A stretch of DNA of 64,000 nt from an uncultured Candidatus Saccharibacteria bacterium (GCA_964345445.1 CAYFQT010000026.1:5685-69684), one strand, 5' to 3'; positions 5,161 through 50,035 are shown, numbered from the stretch's first letter. The notes: generated by a model from the letters alone, not told the origin. Translations and numbers: made by a program.

Positions 5161-5514
5161 TAGTAGAAAATTTTCCTACCCTTATATAGGTAAACCGTCA
5201 TTTAGTTGTTTTAAAAAAACATCTACTTGGCGGTTTTTTCTTTTGTCTAATTCTTAAATAATTTTTAGGCATAACACTTTTTAAGCCATGGCACAATAGT
5301 GTTATATTATAATTTGTTGCGAAATTCAGCTATGGCCTATTTTTGTTACAAAAAATAAAAGCCCACATTAAACTCATAAATATAAATGAGTAAAAGTGGG
5401 CTTTTTGTGTAATTATTTTATTAAACAAACAGAATAAAGATTATATTAGACTAATTTATTTTAAGATGGTAGAATAAGAATAAGATTTTTTGAAATTATA
5501 GACGGAGAGGAAGT

Positions 5515-13614: not shown

Positions 13615-14067
13615 TTATCCAATTAGATATCTACAGGAATCATCTGTCAGCGGTTTTTCCTTTTTTTCTGCTCCTATAGTTTGGAGATTATAGGGGTTTT
13701 CGCCTAAACGAGGTAAAATTTTGTATTTGCATTCCTCGCAAAATGTCCATCTTTCTTTTCTTAGATTTTCAGGAAACATATTATGGATGCGGAAAAGATA
13801 ATTAAATCCTTTTTCACATCCACACAAAGTACAAGTGCCTCCATCTGACTTTTTGCCCGCAAATAAAGATTTTAAATCATTATAACATTCAATACATAAT
13901 AGATATTTGTCGCTATAAGCTTCTCTATTTCCTCGACTTAAATAAATTTTTACAGCTTTTCCTGCAGCTTTTTTATGGTAGTTTAAACCCTCTACATCAG
14001 AGGTTCTTTCAATTATTTTTTCTTTTCCACATCCATCGCTATCACATCTGAGATCATAAATTGACAT
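13615..14067 (-). CDS. cysteine-rich (four CxxC pairs) putative zinc-binding protein
   Basis: RBS AAAGGAGTG upstream on the minus strand. Motifs CDSDGC, CIEC, CTLCGC and CEEC. Confidence 0.5.
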   Translation of the reverse strand: MSIYDLRCDSDGCGKEKIIERTSDVEGLNYHKKAAGKAVKIYLSRGNREAYSDKYLLCIECYNDLKSLFAGKKSDGGTCTLCGCEKGFNYLFRIHNMFPENLRKERWTFCEECKYKILPRLGENPYNLQTIGAEKKEKPLTDDSCRYLIG

Positions 14068-14237
14068 TTTCTTTCACTCCTTTTAGATAGATTAATATGT
14101 TGTTTTCAAAGGACAATATATTTTGATATCTTAATCTATCATACTAAAAATTCTTTGTCAAATATAATTTGAGATGTTATACTTTTAAATAGCACTTAGC
14201 GCATAGCTTTTAGCACTTAGCAAATAGTGAGGTTATT

Positions 14238-14537
14238 ATGGCATTAACTAAGAAGCAAATTGAACATATTGCTATGTTGGCTCGTTTAGGTTTGACAGAA
14301 AAAGAAAAGAAGAGGTTTGAAAGACAACTTTCTTCTGTTTTGGACTATGTAAATCAACTTAATAAAGTAAATACAAAAAATGTCCAGCCAATTGCCCAAA
14401 TAACAGGACTTAAAAATGTAATGGAGGAGGATAAAGTAAAAAGTGATAAGGAGAAGATATCAAAAGATAAATTGTTGAAGAATGCGCCAATGCAGGAAGA
14501 AGGGTGTGTGAAAGTGAAAGCGGTATTAGAAGAGTAA
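14238..14537 (+). CDS. gatC: Asp/Glu-tRNA(Asn/Gln) amidotransferase subunit C
   Basis: MALTKKQIEHIAMLARLGLTEKEKKRFERQLSSVLDYVNQL is a canonical GatC N-terminus. Promoter-like TTGTCA-17-TATACT lies at 14152-14187. Confidence 0.85.
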   Translation: MALTKKQIEHIAMLARLGLTEKEKKRFERQLSSVLDYVNQLNKVNTKNVQPIAQITGLKNVMEEDKVKSDKEKISKDKLLKNAPMQEEGCVKVKAVLEE

Positions 14538-14596
14538 AGGTTACTATGAGTTACTAGAAGTTACTAATGGTTACTAAGAAAGTTACTAGAGGTTAT

Positions 14597-14992
14597 ATGC
14601 AAGAGGAAGCTTATAAAAAATTATTAGTTTGGAAAAATATTTGTGAGTTAAGAAGACTGATTTATAAAATAACTGAGAGATTTGCTAAGACTCATCCAAG
14701 ATTAGCTGGACAAATGAGAGACGCTACAAGATCAGCAAAACAGAATTTTATAGAAGGATATAAACGAGATTCAATTGGATTATTTATTCAATCTGTTAAA
14801 GTTAGCCGAGGCTCTTTAGGAGAATTGGATGGTGATATTGATGATTGTTATGAAGATAATTTAATTACAAAATTGGAGTATACTAATTTAAGTAATTTGA
14901 GTAAAAAATCTTTATACTTAATTGATAGATATATAGATTCGTTATATAAAATGCAAAAAGAAAAAACTTGGAGAGTAAGGTGGCAAAAATAA
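14597..14992 (+). CDS. four-helix-bundle protein (TIGR02436-like), inserted between gatC and gatA
   Basis: ...LLVWKNICELRRLIYKITERFAKTHPRLAGQMRDATRSAKQNFIEGY is characteristic of this family. ATG at 14597 has a better RBS (AGAGG) than the ORF-track start at 14567. Inverted heptamer arrays flank the gene. Confidence 0.65.
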   Translation: MQEEAYKKLLVWKNICELRRLIYKITERFAKTHPRLAGQMRDATRSAKQNFIEGYKRDSIGLFIQSVKVSRGSLGELDGDIDDCYEDNLITKLEYTNLSNLSKKSLYLIDRYIDSLYKMQKEKTWRVRWQK

Positions 14993-15059
14993 TTTTGCAA
15001 CCTTTAGTAACTTATAGCAACTATTAGCAACTATTAGTAACTTATATTTACTAATTAAA

Positions 15060-16646
15060 ATGAATTTAGAAAATCTTACAATTTTACAAGCTCATAAGAA
15101 GCTGAAAAATAAAGAGACTTCATCGGTTGAATTAACCAAAGCAGTTTTGGATAGAATTAAAAAGACTGATAATAAGATTAATGCTTTTATTACAGTCACA
15201 GAAAAAGAAGCATTAAAACAAGCAGAAGAGGCTGACAAACGGATTAAAACTGGAAAGATGCTGAGTAAACTTGATGGAATTCCAGTGGCTCTAAAAGACA
15301 ATATGGCAACAGAAGGAATTTTAACAACAGCTGGTTCTAAGATTTTAGAGAATTTTAAACCGCCTTATGATGCTACAGTTGTTAAAAAAATAAAAGATGC
15401 TGGTGCTATTATTATTGGCAAAACCAATATGGATGAGTTTGCCATGGGTTCTTCTTGTGAAACTTCTTATTTTGGTCCTACGAAAAATCCTTGGGATACA
15501 TCCCGAGTTCCTGGTGGCTCTTCAGGAGGTTCTGCAGCGGCTGTTTCAGCTTCACAATGCATTTATGCCCTGGGTTCTGATACCGGTGGTTCTATTCGCC
15601 AACCAGCCTCTTTTTGTGGTTGTGTAGGCTTAAAACCTACTTATGGTCGAGTATCTCGATATGGTCTTTTGGCTATGGCCTCTTCTTTGGATCAAATTGG
15701 ACCACTTGTAAAAAATACAGAAGATGCAGCAGCAGTTTTGGAGGCTATTTCTGGATATGATGGGGAAGATAGCACAAGCGTAGACAAAAAGTTCAAAGTT
15801 CAAAGTTCAAAGTTCAAAGTTTTAAAAAATGTAAAAATTGGGATTGCTAAGGAGTATTTTAGGGAAGGTTTAGATAAAAAAGTTGAAGATAAGATAAAAT
15901 CAGCGATTAAAGTTTTAGAGTCAAGGGGAGCCAAGATTGAAAATGTTAGCTTACCTCATACTCAATATACCTTAGCTTGCTATTATATAATTATGCCTTC
16001 AGAAGCTTCCACTAATTTAGCCAGATATGATGGAATAAAATATGGATATTCAACCACTCAAATCTCAAATCTCAACTCTCAAAACTTATTAGATGTCTAT
16101 CTACAATCAAGGGCAGAAGGTTTTGGAGATGAGGTAAAAAGGCGAATAATGTTAGGAACTCATACATTATCTTCAGGTTATTATGATCAATATTACTTAA
16201 AAGCTGCTAAAGTTAGAACAAAAATAAAAGAAGATTTTGACAAAGCATTTTCTAAAGTGGATGTTTTAATAACTCCTACTTCACCAACTGTTGCTTTTCC
16301 ACTCGGGGAAAAGTTAGATGATCCATTGACTATGTATTTATCGGATATTTATACAGTACCGGTTAATTTAGCCGGAGTGCCGGCAATTTCTGTTCCTTGT
16401 GGACTAGTTAAAAAGGTTACTAAAAGTTACCAAAAGGATACTAAAAAGTTACTAAAGAGAGTTGATAAAAATACTTTTAGTAACAATTTGCAACCCCTAG
16501 TAACCCCTAGTAGCTCATTATTACCTGTAGGTTTACAAATAATAGGTCCTCAGTGGGGAGAAGAGAAAATTCTACAAACAGCTTATATCTATGAACAGGC
16601 AACAAAAGATGAGGGGTGGAGGAAATTAAAGCCAAGTATAAAGTAA
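15060..16646 (+). CDS. gatA: Glu-tRNA(Gln) amidotransferase subunit A, with in-frame repeat insertions
   Basis: Amidase signature [11 protein letters not shown], plus [10 protein letters not shown] and the catalytic Ser/Lys context. Three low-complexity inserts are encoded by short DNA repeats. Confidence 0.9.
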
Positions 16647-16746
16647 TAGTAATAAGTAATAAGGAATCAAGAATAAAGGGTTAGGAATTAGGAATAGGGA
16701 ATAAGTAGTACTCCTTATAACTAATAACGGATAACTAGGAGCACAT

Positions 16747-17601
16747 ATGGGTAAAGCAGCCAGAATTAGAAGATTAAGAGAATTAGAAAGACAGCAAAAA
16801 GAAGTAGAAAAAAAGGATAAAAAACAATTGACATTAAGAATTGTATTTTTATCTCTGGCTTCTGTTGGTTTAATTGTTGGAATAATTATTATGGTTGTGA
16901 AAATTAATAAGATAAAAAAACAGCCTAAATCTTATAAGACAGGGGAGAGGACCTATTCTCAAGCGCCGGATATGCAAATTGATACCCAAAAAAAGTATAC
17001 AGCTACAATTGAAACATCTTTGGGGAATATCAAAATAGAATTGTTTACCCAAGAAACTCTTAAAACTGTAAATAATTTTGTAGTTTTGGCTCGGGATGGA
17101 TATTATGATGGGTTAAAATTTCATAGAATAATAAAAGATTTTATGATCCAGGGGGGGTGCCCAAAGGGTGACGGCACAGGAGATCCTGGATATAAATTTG
17201 AAGATGAGCCGATAACTGAAAACAGAGATTATACCCCGGGGATTGTAGCTATGGCTAATTCCGGTCCTAACACCAATGGCAGCCAATTCTTTATTATGCA
17301 TGGGGATAAATCTGGTGGGGGTTTACCTAAAAATTATGTGATTTTTGGTCAAGTTTTAGAAGGGATGGAAATAGTAGATCAAATTGCCAATGTAGAGACA
17401 GAGGATAATGGACAAGGGGAAGTATCTCGCCCAAAAGAGGGTGTTTTAATTAATAAAGTCACAATTTCCGAGGAAGAAGTTCAAGTAGCACCTTCAGAAT
17501 TTCCTGGACCAGAAGGCCAACCTATTGATATTCCAACAGAAGATTTACCAATAGAAAGCCAACCGATTGAGATGCCTGTAGAGGTTCCTCAAGGAGAATA
17601 A
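16747..17601 (+). CDS. cyclophilin-type peptidyl-prolyl cis-trans isomerase with N-terminal TM and acidic C-terminal tail
   Basis: FHRIIKDFMIQGG...GYKFEDE...MANSGPNTNGSQFFI is a classic cyclophilin core. Confidence 0.85.
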   Translation: MGKAARIRRLRELERQQKEVEKKDKKQLTLRIVFLSLASVGLIVGIIIMVVKINKIKKQPKSYKTGERTYSQAPDMQIDTQKKYTATIETSLGNIKIELFTQETLKTVNNFVVLARDGYYDGLKFHRIIKDFMIQGGCPKGDGTGDPGYKFEDEPITENRDYTPGIVAMANSGPNTNGSQFFIMHGDKSGGGLPKNYVIFGQVLEGMEIVDQIANVETEDNGQGEVSRPKEGVLINKVTISEEEVQVAPSEFPGPEGQPIDIPTEDLPIESQPIEMPVEVPQGE

Positions 17602-17604
17602 AAT

Positions 17605-18051
17605 ATGGATTATATGATTTTATTGATTTTTGGAATAATTATTTTGTTGGGTGGGGTATTATTTATTTTTATAAATAAATCTTTACCTAAAGACGGTAAA
17701 AAGAACTTTCTTACACAATCAGAAAAAGAAATGGTCCAGAGGAAATGGCAAGAGATTCAGCAACTTTTGCAGCTTGAGGGAGAAAGCAGAAGCAAACAGG
17801 CTGTTTTAGAAGGGGATAAATTAGTCTATTTTGTTTTAAAAAAATTAGGATATTCTGGTGATAATATGGCTGATTGTATGAAAGCAGCAAAAGAAAGATT
17901 TTCTTCATATAAAATTTATTCGGAATTATGGAAAGCCCACAAATGCCGCAATAGAATAGTCCATGAGGTTGATAATGAATTATTACATCAAGAAGCCCAA
18001 AAAACCATCACAAGATTTGAAAGAGTTTTAAAGGATTTGGGAGTTTTATAA
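17605..18051 (+). CDS. hypothetical membrane-anchored protein
   Basis: N-terminal TM. Translationally coupled (ATGA overlap) with the downstream CYTH gene. Confidence 0.4.
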   Translation: MDYMILLIFGIIILLGGVLFIFINKSLPKDGKKNFLTQSEKEMVQRKWQEIQQLLQLEGESRSKQAVLEGDKLVYFVLKKLGYSGDNMADCMKAAKERFSSYKIYSELWKAHKCRNRIVHEVDNELLHQEAQKTITRFERVLKDLGVL

Positions 18052-18581
18052 TGTCTAATATTGAAGTTGAAGTGAGGAGTTTTATTTCTGAACATAAATA
18101 TAAACAATTAATAGAGATAATGAATCAACAAGGGGGTTTTATAGATGAAATAAATGAAGAGACTGTATATTTTTCTGGTGAAAAAGATTTACGAATTCGA
18201 AGAGACAACAAGAAAGCATATTTAATTCTAAAAGAAGGAAAAATTCATGATAAGCATAGAAAAGAGATAGAAATTGAGTGCCAAAGAAATGATTTTAGAA
18301 AATTAGAAGATTTGCTTATAAATTTGGGATTTGAAGTGAAAATTAGATGGTTTAGAAAAAGAAAAATATATAAATGGAATGATATAAAAGTTTTATTAGA
18401 TGATACAAAAGGCTATGGTTATATTGTTGAATTGGAAAAAATAGGTAATGAAGCAGATAAAGAAAAGATTTATAAAAAATTAGAACAAAATTTAAAAGGT
18501 TTAGAAGTACAAATTACCCCTAAAGAAAAATTTGATAAAAAATTTCAATATTATAAGGAAAATTGGAGAACTTTGGTCTAA
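18051..18581 (+). CDS. CYTH domain protein (class IV adenylate cyclase / triphosphatase-like)
   Basis: IEVEVRSF...start with an alternating acidic/basic beta-barrel pattern, typical of CYTH. Confidence 0.55.
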   Translation: MSNIEVEVRSFISEHKYKQLIEIMNQQGGFIDEINEETVYFSGEKDLRIRRDNKKAYLILKEGKIHDKHRKEIEIECQRNDFRKLEDLLINLGFEVKIRWFRKRKIYKWNDIKVLLDDTKGYGYIVELEKIGNEADKEKIYKKLEQNLKGLEVQITPKEKFDKKFQYYKENWRTLV

Positions 18582-18598: not shown

Positions 18599-20131
18599 AT
18601 GGAATATCAGACAATAATTGGATTAGAAATCCATGTACAATTGAAGACAAAATCTAAAATGTTCTGCAGATGTGATAATTATTCAGTGGATGCCAAGCCA
18701 AATATTAATACCTGCCCAGTATGTATGGGAATGCCTGGAACTCTTCCAGTGATAAACCAGCAAGCTATAGAATGGGCAGAAAAGACCGCCTTGGCTTTAA
18801 ATTGTAAAATTTCCTCATTCACTAAATTTGATCGAAAAAGCTATTTCTATCCGGACTTACCCAAAGGATATCAGATATCCCAATATGATATGCCTTTAGC
18901 GGTAGGAGGATGGTTGGATATTGATGTGCCAGAGTCAAAAGTTCAAAGTTCAAAGTCTAAAGTCCAAAATAAGATGTATACTAGAAGAATTAAAATCACT
19001 AGGTTGCATATGGAAGAAGATGCAGCAAAGTTAATTCATTCCGTAAAGGGACGTGGTCCCTACGGGACTTTACGTCCAGAGGTGGCAGATTATAGTTTGG
19101 TTGATTTTAACCGTGCCGGAACTCCACTTATGGAAATTGTTACAGAACCTGACCTAAGCTCCCCACTTGAAGCAAAGATTTTTATGCAGGAGTTAAGAAG
19201 TATTTTGCGATATTTAGATGTTTCTGAAGCTGATATGGAGGAGGGAAATTTGAGATGTGATGCTAATATATCATTAAGTCCAAAGTCCAAAATCCAAAGT
19301 CCAAAGTTGGGGGAGAAGGTGGAAATTAAAAATATAAACTCTTTTAAGGCTGTAGAGAAAGCTTTAGCTTACGAAGTGGAAAGGCAAAAGGATATTTTAG
19401 AAAGTGGGGACAAGATAGTTCAAGAAACTAGAGGCTGGATGGAAGATAAAGGCAGAACAATCTCCCAGCGAGGCAAAGAAGAAGCAGAAGACTATCGTTA
19501 TTTTCCCGAACCAGACTTGCCACCATTGGAATTTGAAAAAAAACAAGTAAAAGAAATTCAATCGAAATTACCTGAATTGCCTAACCAGCGCCAAAGAAGA
19601 TTTGTTAAAGAATATGACCTGTCAATGTATGATGCTCAGGTTTTAACTTCTGAGAAAGAAACATCTGTCTTTTTTGAAGACACAGTTCAAAAAATATCCA
19701 AATTAAATCACGAAAAGGCCAAGAGGGCGTGCAACTGGATAACAACGGAATTGCAATATTTACTTAAGGATAAAGATATAGATATTAGCAAATGCAAAAT
19801 TAAACCAAAGGATTTAGCCGAGCTTATTGGATTAATTGACAAAGGAGAAATCTCAGGGAAAATAGCCAAAGATGTATTCGTAGAAATGTTTAATTCCGGA
19901 AAAGCCCCTTCGGAAATTGTGAGTAAAAAAGGATTAAGACAAGTTAGTGATGAAGGAGAATTAGAGAAAATTATAGATAAAATTATATCTCAAAATAAAC
20001 AAGCAGTTTCTGATTATAAAGAAGGAAAGGAAAATGCATTTAAGTTTTTAGTAGGGCAGACAATGGCTTCTACCCGCGGTCAAGCCAATCCTCAGATGGT
20101 TAATAAGATATTGAAGGAAAAATTGAAATAA
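18599..20131 (+). CDS. gatB: Asp/Glu-tRNA amidotransferase subunit B, with two in-frame repeat insertions
   Basis: MEYQTIIGLEIHVQLKTKSKMFC.C...GMPGTLP and DFNRAGTPLMEIVTEPD match GatB. It carries a C-terminal GatB/YqeY domain. Confidence 0.9.
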   Translation: MEYQTIIGLEIHVQLKTKSKMFCRCDNYSVDAKPNINTCPVCMGMPGTLPVINQQAIEWAEKTALALNCKISSFTKFDRKSYFYPDLPKGYQISQYDMPLAVGGWLDIDVPESKVQSSKSKVQNKMYTRRIKITRLHMEEDAAKLIHSVKGRGPYGTLRPEVADYSLVDFNRAGTPLMEIVTEPDLSSPLEAKIFMQELRSILRYLDVSEADMEEGNLRCDANISLSPKSKIQSPKLGEKVEIKNINSFKAVEKALAYEVERQKDILESGDKIVQETRGWMEDKGRTISQRGKEEAEDYRYFPEPDLPPLEFEKKQVKEIQSKLPELPNQRQRRFVKEYDLSMYDAQVLTSEKETSVFFEDTVQKISKLNHEKAKRACNWITTELQYLLKDKDIDISKCKIKPKDLAELIGLIDKGEISGKIAKDVFVEMFNSGKAPSEIVSKKGLRQVSDEGELEKIIDKIISQNKQAVSDYKEGKENAFKFLVGQTMASTRGQANPQMVNKILKEKLK

Positions 20132-20457
20132 TTCGAAGAATATTGAGAATTACTAATGAACAATTGCTAATTTCTAATCAAATCCCAATGACTAATAAAG
20201 AAACAAAATTCTAAATCCGAAATTCTAAATACTAAATCCTAAATCCCAACGGGATCCCTTCGGGACAATATCAAATGACCAAAATGCTACCACAGCCCCA
20301 CCCAACCACCCTTTTATTGTATAGATTATATAACAAAACAATATAAGTTTAGAACATTGGAAAATTTGAATTTTGAATTTATTTAGGATTTAGAAATTAG
20401 ATATTAGAAATTTTATAAGATAAGTTAATTGTGTTATATTAAAACCAAGGAAAAATA

Positions 20458-21099
20458 ATGCGAAGAAAAAGAAAAGCAAAAGTTACAATAGAAGAAGATG
20501 AAGAAGTTACAACGGGTTGGTCCAAAGTCCAGAAATATTTGGAAGAGAAGAATATCAATTCTTTTCTTTTAGCTGTTTTAGAAGCTGATAAATTATTAGC
20601 CAAGGCATTAAAAGATAAAGGTTATCCTGGCAAGACCACCCAGGAGAAGATTGGAGCAGCCAAGGAAAAATTTACCAATATCAATTTTCTTCTTGGTGCA
20701 AGAGATATACGAGATAAGATTATTAATAAAATAGATTATAATCTTTCTTCTTTGGATTTAGAAGATGCTATTTCTGCCTATAGGCAAGCCATAATTGATT
20801 TAGGAGAAGAATCAGAGAAATTACCTATTTCTGAAAGATTATTACTTCTTTTTCATTATTATTATCCTTCTAAAAAACAAGCACTTAAAAAAATTATTAT
20901 TTATATAGTTTTATTTTTTACAATAGTTTGGTTTTTGTCTCATACTTCACTAGGACAAAATATTGTTAATATTGTAGTAGGAGTAACCAATATTATTTTC
21001 AGTTGGGTTTTAGCAATAGTTTTGTTGGTTGTGGGAGTTATAATTACGGTGATTGCAAGTCTTTTGTATTTTGAGAAAAGAAGGAAGGAAAGAAGATGA
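20458..21099 (+). CDS. hypothetical membrane protein
   Basis: Charged N-terminus, then two to three TM segments (IIIYIVLFFTIVWFL..., IVLLVVGVIITVIASLLYF). Confidence 0.4.
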   Translation: MRRKRKAKVTIEEDEEVTTGWSKVQKYLEEKNINSFLLAVLEADKLLAKALKDKGYPGKTTQEKIGAAKEKFTNINFLLGARDIRDKIINKIDYNLSSLDLEDAISAYRQAIIDLGEESEKLPISERLLLLFHYYYPSKKQALKKIIIYIVLFFTIVWFLSHTSLGQNIVNIVVGVTNIIFSWVLAIVLLVVGVIITVIASLLYFEKRRKERR

Positions 21100-21258
21100 T
21101 GTAAAAATTCTAAATCCGAAATCCTAAACAATATCTAAATTCCAATGTTCAAAATTCTAAACATTATATTTGTTTTGGTCATTTGGATTTAGATATTAGG
21201 ATTTGTTTAGAAATTAGATATTAGAAATTAGGATTTTAATTTAAAGGGGTGAACAAAT

Positions 21259-39923: not shown

Positions 39924-40625
39924 ATGAGATTTAAGAAACTTTCCAGAAATTTTTATAATAGAAATACTTTAAGTATTGCTCAGGAGCTTTTGGGGAAATA
40001 TTTGGTAAGGCAAATAGGGCAGGAAGGTCAGGCAGGAAGGATTGTGGAGACAGAAGCCTATATTGGTCAGGATGATGATGCTTGTCACGCATCTCGTGGC
40101 AAGACAAGACGAAACGAAGTGATGTTTGGCTCTGCGGGCCATGCCTATGTTTATATGATTTATGGAATATATTGGTGTTTGAATATTGTAACAGAGAAAA
40201 AAAGATTTCCCGCTGCTGTTTTGATCCGTGCCTTAGAACCAGTAGAAAGTAGAAGGAATAGGGAATTAGAAATAAGTAATAAGGAATTAGTGATTAGGAA
40301 TAAGAAGCTTTTGAAAAATACGGGACAAGTAGGAATGAGTAGAATTAAGACAGATTCCATATTCCTTGGAACTAATACTTATACTCTCACTAATGGGCCA
40401 GGAAAGTTATGCCGGTGGATGAAAATTACCAAAGAATTAAATGGTGAAGATTTAGTAAATTCTGATAGATTATGGGTTGAAGATAGGAGAGAGAAAATTT
40501 TTAAAAAAGATATCATAAAAACCACCAGAGTAGGTGTTGACTATGCCCAAAATTCCAAAGGCCACCCCTGGCGGTTTTATATAAAGAACAGTCCTTTTGT
40601 TTCCAAAAAGATGAAATTTTTTTAA
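39924..40625 (+). CDS. mpg: DNA-3-methyladenine glycosylase (Mpg/AAG family) with an in-frame repeat-derived insertion
   Basis: IAQELLGKYLVR...GRIVETEAYIGQDD.ACHASRG.T.RN.VMFG.AGHAYVYMIYG...LN is canonical. An insert of about 35 aa precedes LTNGPGKLC. Confidence 0.8.
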   Translation: MRFKKLSRNFYNRNTLSIAQELLGKYLVRQIGQEGQAGRIVETEAYIGQDDDACHASRGKTRRNEVMFGSAGHAYVYMIYGIYWCLNIVTEKKRFPAAVLIRALEPVESRRNRELEISNKELVIRNKKLLKNTGQVGMSRIKTDSIFLGTNTYTLTNGPGKLCRWMKITKELNGEDLVNSDRLWVEDRREKIFKKDIIKTTRVGVDYAQNSKGHPWRFYIKNSPFVSKKMKFF

Positions 40626-49644: not shown

Positions 49645-49727
49645 TAAAAATATAATTTAAAATGACCTAAGCGGTCTTTTTTTATTCCTAAAATCCTTGA
49701 CAAATAACCTATTTTAGGATATAATTA

Positions 49728-49867
49728 AGTAATTACATTTGAAAATATAATCAAAGATTACTTAATTACGCTTAAGCTGTGCGAAAGCACTAATTAGATA
49801 ATTACATTTGAAAATATAATCAAAAATTACTTAATTACGCTGGATTAAAATGTAAGCACTAATTGGG
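49728..49867. repeat. tandem direct repeat of about 70 bp (2 copies) containing TAATTAC/GTAATTA motifs
   Basis: TAATTACATTTGAAAATATAATCAAAGATTACTTAATTACGC...AGCACTAATT recurs at 49800 with one mismatch in the first 42 bp. Confidence 0.7.
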
Positions 49868-50035
49868 TAATTAAGTTCAAATTGTTCAATCGCTCGTTTC
49901 ACTTGTTGTTCAAAATGTTAACCAATAACATCAGCGCAAATCCGCGGCATAAAAATCCGCGTAAATCAGCTTTTTGTAATATCAGCGTAATCTGTGTTAT
50001 ACAAAAATAAACATCAAAAATAAAGGAAAAACAAA

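Follow-up and report, generated by a model that had tools for sequence, protein, structure and literature searches.

The closest described counterparts of the element reported here are the intervening sequences (IVS) of 23S and 16S ribosomal RNA genes that bear an open reading frame (ORF), as in Coxiella, Leptospira, Brucella and Xanthomonas and in the rRNA insertions of the Candidate Phyla Radiation (CPR). To our knowledge, these sequences have been regarded for over 30 years as "selfish elements of unknown mobility", and we know of no function assigned to the very large PF05635/TIGR02436 protein family that they encode, outside Avd, the cofactor of diversity-generating retroelements (DGR). 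In the Coxiella 23S IVS, tandem GACAGAT heptamers lie just upstream of the PF05635 ORF and a 28-bp terminal stem is cut by RNase III, so that the element, regarded as selfish, is excised from the transcript (PMC4990558). The CPR rRNA insertions also carry a PF05635 ORF (bioRxiv 10.1101/2024.02.27.582315). We analyzed a stretch of 64,000 nucleotides (hereafter the window) from an assembly of an uncultured Candidatus Saccharibacteria bacterium (GCA_964345445.1, CAYFQT010000026.1:5685-69684), in which a PF05635 gene bracketed by inverted arrays of short repeats, hereafter the cassette, sits between gatC and gatA. The cassette resembles the rRNA IVS in having its PF05635 ORF in the loop of a long predicted stem made by terminal inverted repeats, and the Coxiella IVS in having short tandem repeats just upstream of the ORF and a Shine-Dalgarno (SD) sequence in the stem. 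It differs from them in lying between protein-coding cistrons, and thus fails the rRNA location by which an IVS is defined.

In the window, gatC (14238-14537; Pfam GatC, E 1e-19) and gatA (15060-16646; Pfam Amidase, E 1.5e-163) are separated by a spacer of 522 nt, which is filled completely by the cassette ORF and two repeat arrays; the three genes are all on the + strand. The 141-codon ORF (14567-14992) matches Pfam PF05635, "23S rRNA intervening sequence protein", at 56.5 bits (cut-off 33.8) and NCBIfam TIGR02436, "four helix bundle protein", with 50.3 bits (cut-off 24), in agreement with the family assigned to it in the initial annotation of this region. An identical cassette was present in a separate assembly (Logan contig, ERR2564001). 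The features of the locus are as follows.

14155..14183, + strand: best sigma-70-like site, TTGTCA-17-TATACT with TG, from a consensus scan only
14238..14537, + strand: gatC (Pfam GatC); its stop codon pairs at the stem base in the predicted fold
14538..14596, + strand: upstream (F) array, five exact GTTACTA units and a degenerate sixth
14567..14992, + strand: four-helix-bundle gene of the S23p/Avd type (PF05635/TIGR02436), from Pfam, NCBIfam, AlphaFold2 (AF2) and Foldseek
14993..15046, + strand: downstream (R) array, reverse complement of the F units, pairing with F2-F5 in the predicted fold
15060..16646, + strand: gatA (Pfam Amidase); its ATG directly follows the stem on the 3' side and is left unpaired in the predicted fold
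16409..16514, + strand: putative gene-less, partly decayed copy of the element within the gatA frame, four F and four R units around a loop of about 23 nt

The five upstream GTTACTA copies that had been announced are exact (14540, 14550, 14560, 14570 and 14582) and are followed by a degenerate GTTAT at 14592. Downstream, TAGTAAC (15005 and 15035) and TAGCAAC (15015 and 15025) stand as the reverse complement, as described, with a degenerate TGCAACC at 14996; the clear copies number four and not five. The arrays are therefore inverted as claimed, but they are not tandem heptamers: cores of 7 nt recur with a period of 10 nt. They occupy all the space up to both neighbouring genes, and 2 nt separate the gatC stop codon TAA (14535-14537) from the first core. 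The window contains 14 copies of GTTACTA, where 5.9 are expected and the highest count in shuffled sequences is 12; seven of these occurrences fall in the cassette flanks and four more in a second cluster inside gatA. The two-unit pattern GTTRCTANNNGTTRCTA, with at most one mismatch, gave 11 matches in the window against 0.03 expected, all of them within 14540-15041 or 16416-16514. These counts confirm that the flanking arrays are real and far beyond chance. The longest reading of the ORF begins at an in-frame ATG (14567) that falls in the F array. The real start is probably ATG 14597, in which case residues 1-10 of the longest ORF are array-encoded; this ATG and an SD-like GAGG (14589-14592) belong to the last upstream unit. 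No Rfam family matched within 14000-17000 and no paralogue of the four-helix-bundle protein was found in the window.

The presence of the cassette was then compared with the state of the locus in related genomes. A GatA scan of species-representative genomes returned relatives only 47-55% identical, useless for presence or absence; these loci served for gatC-gatA spacing and as a negative control of 492 kb. Close relatives were found via a protein search plus contig look-ups, the best named ones for GatA being Nealsonbacteria, Portnoybacteria and Parcubacteria. Three syntenic CPR relatives (L095, L096/L097 and L098/L099; GatA identity 73, 68 and 64%) have in common the gene order ligA ... gatC-gatA-PPIase-x-(CYTH)-gatB, where PPIase denotes a peptidyl-prolyl isomerase gene. 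Their gatC-gatA distances are 40, 70 and 6 nt, and neither the four-helix-bundle gene nor GTTA[C/A] arrays are present in any of the three. The median gatC-gatA gap is likewise about 23 nt in 57 diverse genomes where gatC was detectable upstream of gatA, against 522 nt here. Because the syntenic relatives have short gaps with no gene and no arrays, the cassette is an insertion in the gatC-gatA spacer of a CPR/Patescibacteria chromosome. The proposal of the initial annotation that it splits two normally adjacent genes is thus upheld by the comparison of relatives that the annotation itself had suggested.

The same design was recovered in many other loci. Homologues of the window protein were at most 63% identical to it, and the named ones were from Omnitrophota. 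The first five contexts, miaB-4HB-miaA, response regulator-4HB-HD, RACo-4HB-cooC, leuS-4HB and the window itself (4HB, four-helix-bundle gene), all showed 10-nt phased GTTAC-type arrays upstream and inverted ones downstream. A metagenome scan gave 80 loci, and the 59 distinct loci with both flanks were used for the counts. Per 120 nt, the upstream flank holds 5.4 copies of the motif GTT[ATG][CA] and the downstream flank 4.2 copies of its complement, against 0.5-0.6 cores in control windows 300 nt further out. The search for other copies of the gene with the same flanks, proposed earlier as a check, was thus positive, with at least three cores upstream plus at least three inverted cores downstream in 46 of the 59 loci. 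Spacing is exactly 10 nt for 191 of 258 upstream intervals (74%) and 134 of 190 downstream ones (70%). De novo counting returned GTTAC/GTTAA as the commonest 5-mer on both sides, the unit consensus across loci is a-(G/A)-GTTA-(C/A)-n-A-A, and no phased GTTAC-type array was detected in the 492 kb of control DNA around unrelated gatA genes. The host G+C content varies from 30 to 65%, yet the AT-rich core is retained; the arrays are sequence-constrained irrespective of host G+C. Upstream arrays most often hold five units (19 of 43 loci), and the arms, phased arrays of 3-11 or more units with a period of 10 nt, differ from the single inverted repeat of the rRNA IVS.

The cassettes are tightly packed in their operons. 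The neighbouring genes are co-directional in 55 of 59 loci upstream and 43 of 50 downstream, a conservative, ORF-based estimate, with median gaps of 75 and 64 nt, respectively. In 19 of 36 loci, the upstream gene ends with a stop codon 0-6 nt ahead of the first core, and in 12 more the array itself provides this stop (31 of 36 together); the in-frame ATG nearest the conserved domain is inside the array, 5-8 nt past a core, in 31 of 50 loci. The host operons are functionally unrelated (gatCAB, miaB/miaA, leuS, acetyl-CoA synthase, pilins, two-component genes, cas genes). Neither an Rfam match nor rRNA was found in 20 related loci, no subfamily member was found in the IMG/VR viral contigs, which gives no evidence of phage carriage, and the plasmid collection contained no match to the window protein. 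Broken or fused copies were seen at L100, L111, L153, L160 and L175. Gene and arrays form one conserved unit placed in many unrelated operons, which suggests a genetic element of a widespread and apparently undescribed type. At L113, L120 and L103, the four-helix-bundle gene stands between or beside complete F-loop-R hairpins and not in the loop of a single one; the loops of the two hairpins flanking it at L113 are nearly identical.

The protein was modelled with AF2 as a monomer at a mean confidence (pLDDT) of 90.6, with four helices at residues 20-39, 44-66, 70-96 and 102-132 and a disordered, array-encoded segment at residues 1-11; conservation among homologues starts at about residue 15. 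The best Foldseek matches were XCC0516 (2GSC; TM-score 0.92, root-mean-square deviation 1.3), BT_0352 (2RLD; TM-score 0.87) and Avd (4DWL/8UB7). Each of these solved relatives has five chains, and by this analogy the window protein is probably pentameric. It is basic (pI 9.5; about 9-9.7 in the subfamily), and the signature RSAKQN..E.Y and S.L.E...D..D...D is invariant in the subfamily. Avd forms a pentameric barrel of positive charge, and in the DGR ribonucleoprotein it binds a defined RNA element (bioRxiv 10.1101/2023.10.23.563531). The cassette protein is thus like Avd (PDB 4DWL, 8UB7), whose pentamer binds a specific structured RNA element, in its basic four-helix-bundle fold; it differs in sharing only about 11% sequence identity, and the cassette is without reverse transcriptase and without a template/variable repeat (TR/VR) pair. 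PF05635 was the sole significant Pfam match, with no recognisable nuclease or recombinase motif. A HEPN-like RNase, considered for an R-x4-N motif, was dropped as it had no profile support.

Unsaturated pairs gave dN/dS values of 0.04-0.12, and this strong purifying selection shows that the protein is functional, in contrast with the decaying ORF of Coxiella. The initial annotation took the gene for a passenger. This is not what was found: across over 50 unrelated loci the gene travels with its arrays, and strong purifying selection acts on it, hence it is the core gene of the element itself. Cassettes with proteins at least 85% identical occupy orthologous contexts and those at or below 82% unrelated ones, a pattern which argues for long and mostly vertical residence with occasional relocation. 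Near-identical cassettes in differing contexts were not found among the loci, and recent transposition was rejected on this distribution.

Gene-less derivatives of the element were detected as well, which is a further difference from the rRNA IVS, one of them being in frame inside a gene. At 16409-16514, in gatA, F units at 16416, 16426, 16438 and 16448 face R units at 16478, 16488, 16498 and 16508, with units again 10 nt apart and no gene in the loop. The copy adds 35 residues to a GatA surface loop between "PCGLV" and "LPVGLQ", and these are absent from the closest GatA, P0030 (73% identical). In its second unit, GTTACCA stands at the very place where GTTACTA would have produced a TAA in frame, and the hairpin folds no better than shuffled sequences (z -0.65). 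We infer that this segment is a decayed derivative of the element, devoid of the gene, which GatA has taken up as a protein loop. The GatA of a relative carries an (AAACAAC)n insertion in the same loop. A comparable situation is reportedly found in the Rickettsia palindromic elements attributed to Ogata in 2000, where an in-frame palindromic repeat is tolerated as an extra surface segment of an essential protein; they are of unrelated sequence and occur in another host group, and we know of no protein gene associated with them. Other gene-less F-loop-R hairpins occur at L103, L112, L120, L131 and L174, the same loop being repeated within one contig in some cases (L174, L120/L112). In 95 kb of host contigs, 11 arrays were found more than 400 nt from the four-helix-bundle gene, against none in the 492 kb of controls. 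Traits of miniature inverted-repeat transposable elements (MITE) are thus present in the window and at L174, L120, L112 and L131: terminal inverted repeats, several copies and some copies without the gene.

Taken together, these data lead us to consider it slightly better than an even chance that the cassette is an rRNA-IVS-type element residing outside rRNA, read through from its host operon, whose arms are phased sites for its own protein and can also form a stem. The predicted fold has 44 bp between the arms 14538-14596 and 14993-15059 (z-score of the region -6.8), and bases of the upstream array have a mean probability of 0.74 of pairing with the downstream one. This stem takes up the SD and both candidate AUGs; the gatC stop lies at the stem base, and the gatA AUG remains unpaired immediately outside. 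Across loci, a cassette's own arms form a duplex of -38 kcal/mol on average, whereas arms combined from different loci give -26 kcal/mol. As promoter space is absent in the cassettes, read-through from the host operon would be required. No sigma-70-like site of comparable quality was found directly 5' of the four-helix-bundle gene by the consensus scan; the one at 14155-14183, upstream of gatC, is a candidate operon promoter that would drive gatC and the cassette too. According to this proposal, the cassette would be transcribed from the gatCAB promoter, and the arrays would act as phased recognition sites to which the cassette's own basic, probably pentameric protein is predicted to bind. In the transcript, the arms would zip, in any register, into a stem of about 44 bp that encloses the ORF, buries its SD and AUG and puts the gatC stop beside the gatA start. 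Binding of the protein and/or an RNase III-type cleavage, as in the rRNA IVS, would then control cassette expression and uncouple the cassette from the host cistrons; RNase III processing may be shared with the IVS by analogy.

Several results weigh against this proposal. A clear array is missing on one or both sides in 13 of the 59 loci. Shuffling the order of the R units did not weaken the duplex (-38.9 vs -38.3 kcal/mol, p 0.42), so that there is no register-specific complementarity and an evolved register-specific stem was rejected. Pairing through G-U wobbles in the sense strand was rejected too, the variant spectrum being symmetric in motif orientation and not in strand orientation (GTTGC 30 vs 18 and GTTAT 7 vs 9 on the two arms). 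The sense duplex was slightly more stable than the antisense one (27 vs 14 loci, p 0.03), which counts as weak evidence for an RNA-level stem because of this symmetry. With such weak or negative tests for an RNA stem, the data fit recognition of duplex DNA equally well. The orthologous-position cassettes, with four-helix-bundle proteins 85-98% identical and neighbours 48-98% identical, are vertically inherited and at least as conserved as the housekeeping genes beside them, a pattern more readily expected of a useful or addictive resident than of a parasite that jumps actively. The window yielded no transposase, integrase or reverse transcriptase (30 ORFs of the rest of the window were scanned), and no target-site duplication could be made out, as the ends of the arrays are fuzzy and the relatives too diverged.

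The core type of the two arms agrees in 39 of 40 loci, their commonest 7-mer is identical in 23 of 40 against 4.8 expected, and core type tracks protein similarity (none of 1000 permutations reached the observed difference). Three tests, the unit-order shuffle, the variant spectrum and the retention of the core across hosts, argue that sequence recognition, beyond mere pairing, would be the conserved feature. The modal number of five upstream units is suggestive of a possible match with the pentameric relatives of the protein.

A serious rival, although we hold it to be improbable on the whole, is a system like the REPIN/RAYT one described below, or like a MITE, in which the arrays act on DNA. 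The arrays would here be subterminal sites on duplex or hairpin DNA, and the protein or a recruited host enzyme would synapse or propagate the hairpins, the gene sitting in one of them and gene-less doublets being dispersed elsewhere in the genome. The 10-nt phase matches the helical repeat of B-DNA, the occurrence of the same variants on both arms together with the lack of register covariation points to sites and not to a stem, and single contigs contain repeated gene-less hairpins that have the unit, and even the loop, in common. A similar system is constituted by the repetitive extragenic palindromes (REP), their doublets (REPIN) and the REP-associated tyrosine transposase (RAYT) genes, reportedly described by Nunvar in 2010 and by Bertels and Rainey in 2011. 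A RAYT is a single, vertically inherited gene under purifying selection which is flanked by inverted copies of a short repeat, while gene-less doublets are scattered in the genome. The cassette shows this same layout, and its gene, too, is vertical, under purifying selection and flanked by its own repeats. However, RAYTs are homologues of HUH/Y1 (IS200/IS605-like) transposases, whereas the cassette encodes a four-helix bundle that lacks any known catalytic motif, and REPs are single imperfect palindromes where the cassette has phased arrays. The absence of any recognisable nuclease or recombinase motif and a fold shared with Avd, an RNA-binding cofactor, count against an action on DNA, target-site duplications were not seen, and strict co-orientation with host genes would not be needed, though a gene without promoter would still require it. 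A regulatory module beneficial to the host is, in our opinion, still harder to credit. In this view, the arrays would serve as operator for the protein, itself an RNA- or DNA-binding regulator, and the module would tune the relative expression or the processing of the flanking cistrons. Strong purifying selection, long vertical retention at the same operon junction, an always tight position between co-directional genes and a start codon and SD embedded in the array would suit such a role, but the host operons have no common function, the close relatives of the window organism manage without the cassette, and pseudogenised or fused copies (the five loci named above) as well as decayed gene-less copies within coding sequence occur.

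Two other explanations are very improbable. The cassette could be the remnant of a DGR whose avd gene was left without its reverse transcriptase, given the relation of the fold to Avd and the fact that DGR loci have PF05635 as their most common accessory family (PMC10053308). No RVT domain was detected in the 30 scanned ORFs, and two long window ORFs without Pfam match also failed the RVT models; a template/variable repeat pair is absent, with 10-nt units as the sole repeats around the gene, the Pfam bAvd model did not match the window protein and the subfamily was not found in the IMG/VR viral contigs. That the flanks are ordinary features unlinked to the gene, either intrinsic terminators or generic slippage-prone simple repeats, can be considered next to excluded, even though short tandem repeats, most of them with a period of 7 nt, abound in the window, both in intergenic regions and inside gatA and gatB, and some of these form hairpins with no gene in the loop. 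The initial annotation had named terminators as the result that would overturn its view, and no terminator-like site (G+C-rich stem followed by a T-run) was present in 14538-14596 or 14993-15059. In addition, the same core and 10-nt phase recur at more than 45 unrelated loci in hosts of 30-65% G+C, while the arrays are absent from the 492 kb control and from the syntenic relatives.

Arrays of other units accompany more distant members of the family. At L100, a distant PF05635 gene (Pfam E 2.9e-31) located 1 kb from a GTTAC-type cassette is flanked by an inverted pair of two 13-nt units, AGTAAGAGTAnnG. The two different cassettes lie within a pseudopilin operon (L100, 380-2100); the GTTAC-type gene has lost its stop and reads via the downstream array into a PilX-like gene, and the downstream array of the other cassette is translated as a prepilin leader. 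Cyanobacterial PF05635 genes were reached only via this distant L100 paralogue. On cyanobacterial plasmids, they stand inside operons such as cas6-4HB-cas4 with flanking heptamer arrays. The arrays have inverted orientation in N. punctiforme, in Anabaena sp. 90 (GTGACAG) and in Calothrix (GGGTGTA), whereas those of Pseudanabaena are direct. Heptamer arrays were rare in three 50-kb plasmid segments (2, 3 and 3-4 regions); of these 8-9 arrays, five directly flank the three lone PF05635 genes and another two have the same local unit. Under a perfect-run criterion, the only other run on plasmid pANA02 sits between the reverse transcriptase and avd genes of a DGR. In the type I-D CRISPR loci of L181/L186 (Anabaena sp. 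90 pANA02) and L184 (Pseudanabaena galeata plasmid), the PF05635 gene is between cas6 and cas4 with long heptamer arrays on its flanks; all eight perfect period-7 runs in 50 kb of pANA02 adjoin this gene or the DGR avd gene.

The cyanobacterial short tandemly repeated repetitive (STRR) heptamers, reportedly described by Mazel in 1990, resemble the cassette arms in being short tandem units in intergenic DNA, often as inverted pairs, and differ in having a period of 7 nt, with different units, in place of 10 nt. In the literature searched, flanking arrays were not described as a property of the family beyond the Coxiella heptamers, and no link between STRR and PF05635 genes was found; the link proposed here rests on a small sample. 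It is conceivable, and we advance it tentatively, that PF05635 proteins and unit-matched short tandem arrays form one general and unrecognised bacterial system, in which a basic pentamer would recognise phased repeats flanking its own gene and gene-less hairpins would be its dependants, in the manner of RAYT and REPIN. The rRNA IVS, the cyanobacterial STRR heptamers, for long unexplained, and the GTTAC cassettes would then be its faces, each with its own unit.

The present data associate PF05635 genes with conserved, subfamily-specific pairs of phased arrays, site them in ordinary operons and indicate that gene-less hairpins may be left behind even inside an essential enzyme such as GatA. They offer a directly testable hypothesis, namely that the protein binds the phased array and that five units may match a pentamer, and a candidate origin for families of short tandem repeats such as the cyanobacterial STRRs. 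For annotation, such elements would explain odd "extra" small genes that split conserved operons and low-complexity insertions in CPR proteins.

The remainder of the window is core housekeeping DNA (dnaE, rpoB, nusA, clpB/clpP, tig, recG, tyrS and others). At 16747-18581, gatB is set apart from gatC-gatA by the PPIase gene, an unknown gene and a CYTH-domain gene, and this split is kept in the relatives (L095-L099). Tandem 7-nt repeats inside gatA (15788-15821 and 16057-16083) and gatB (18929-18968 and 19276-19307) are read as low-complexity peptide; the units found in coding sequence (gatA, gatB and L096 at about 5340-5400) are AAAGTTC (4.9 copies), CTCAAAT (3.9 copies) and CAAAGTY. Intergenic inverted arrays of AAATYCT/AGRATTT with no gene in the loop were located at 20190-20412 and 21098-21245, the second of which folds with a z-score of -4.4, and (AGGAATA)n arrays after gatA (16641-16702) and at 40253-40304. 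Together they look like a second family of array hairpins in this genome. The sequence GTTCAAATTGTTCAATCG occurs six times on the + strand (44392, 49875, 56897, 60671, 60705 and 60714) where 0.16 occurrences are expected. Each of them is intergenic and lies upstream of a + strand gene, examples being tyrS, an EamA transporter gene and rpoB, and the sequence may be a promoter or regulatory motif. Finally, a 69-nt tandem repeat (2.2 copies, 81% matches) was observed at 49722-49873, upstream of an EamA-family gene.

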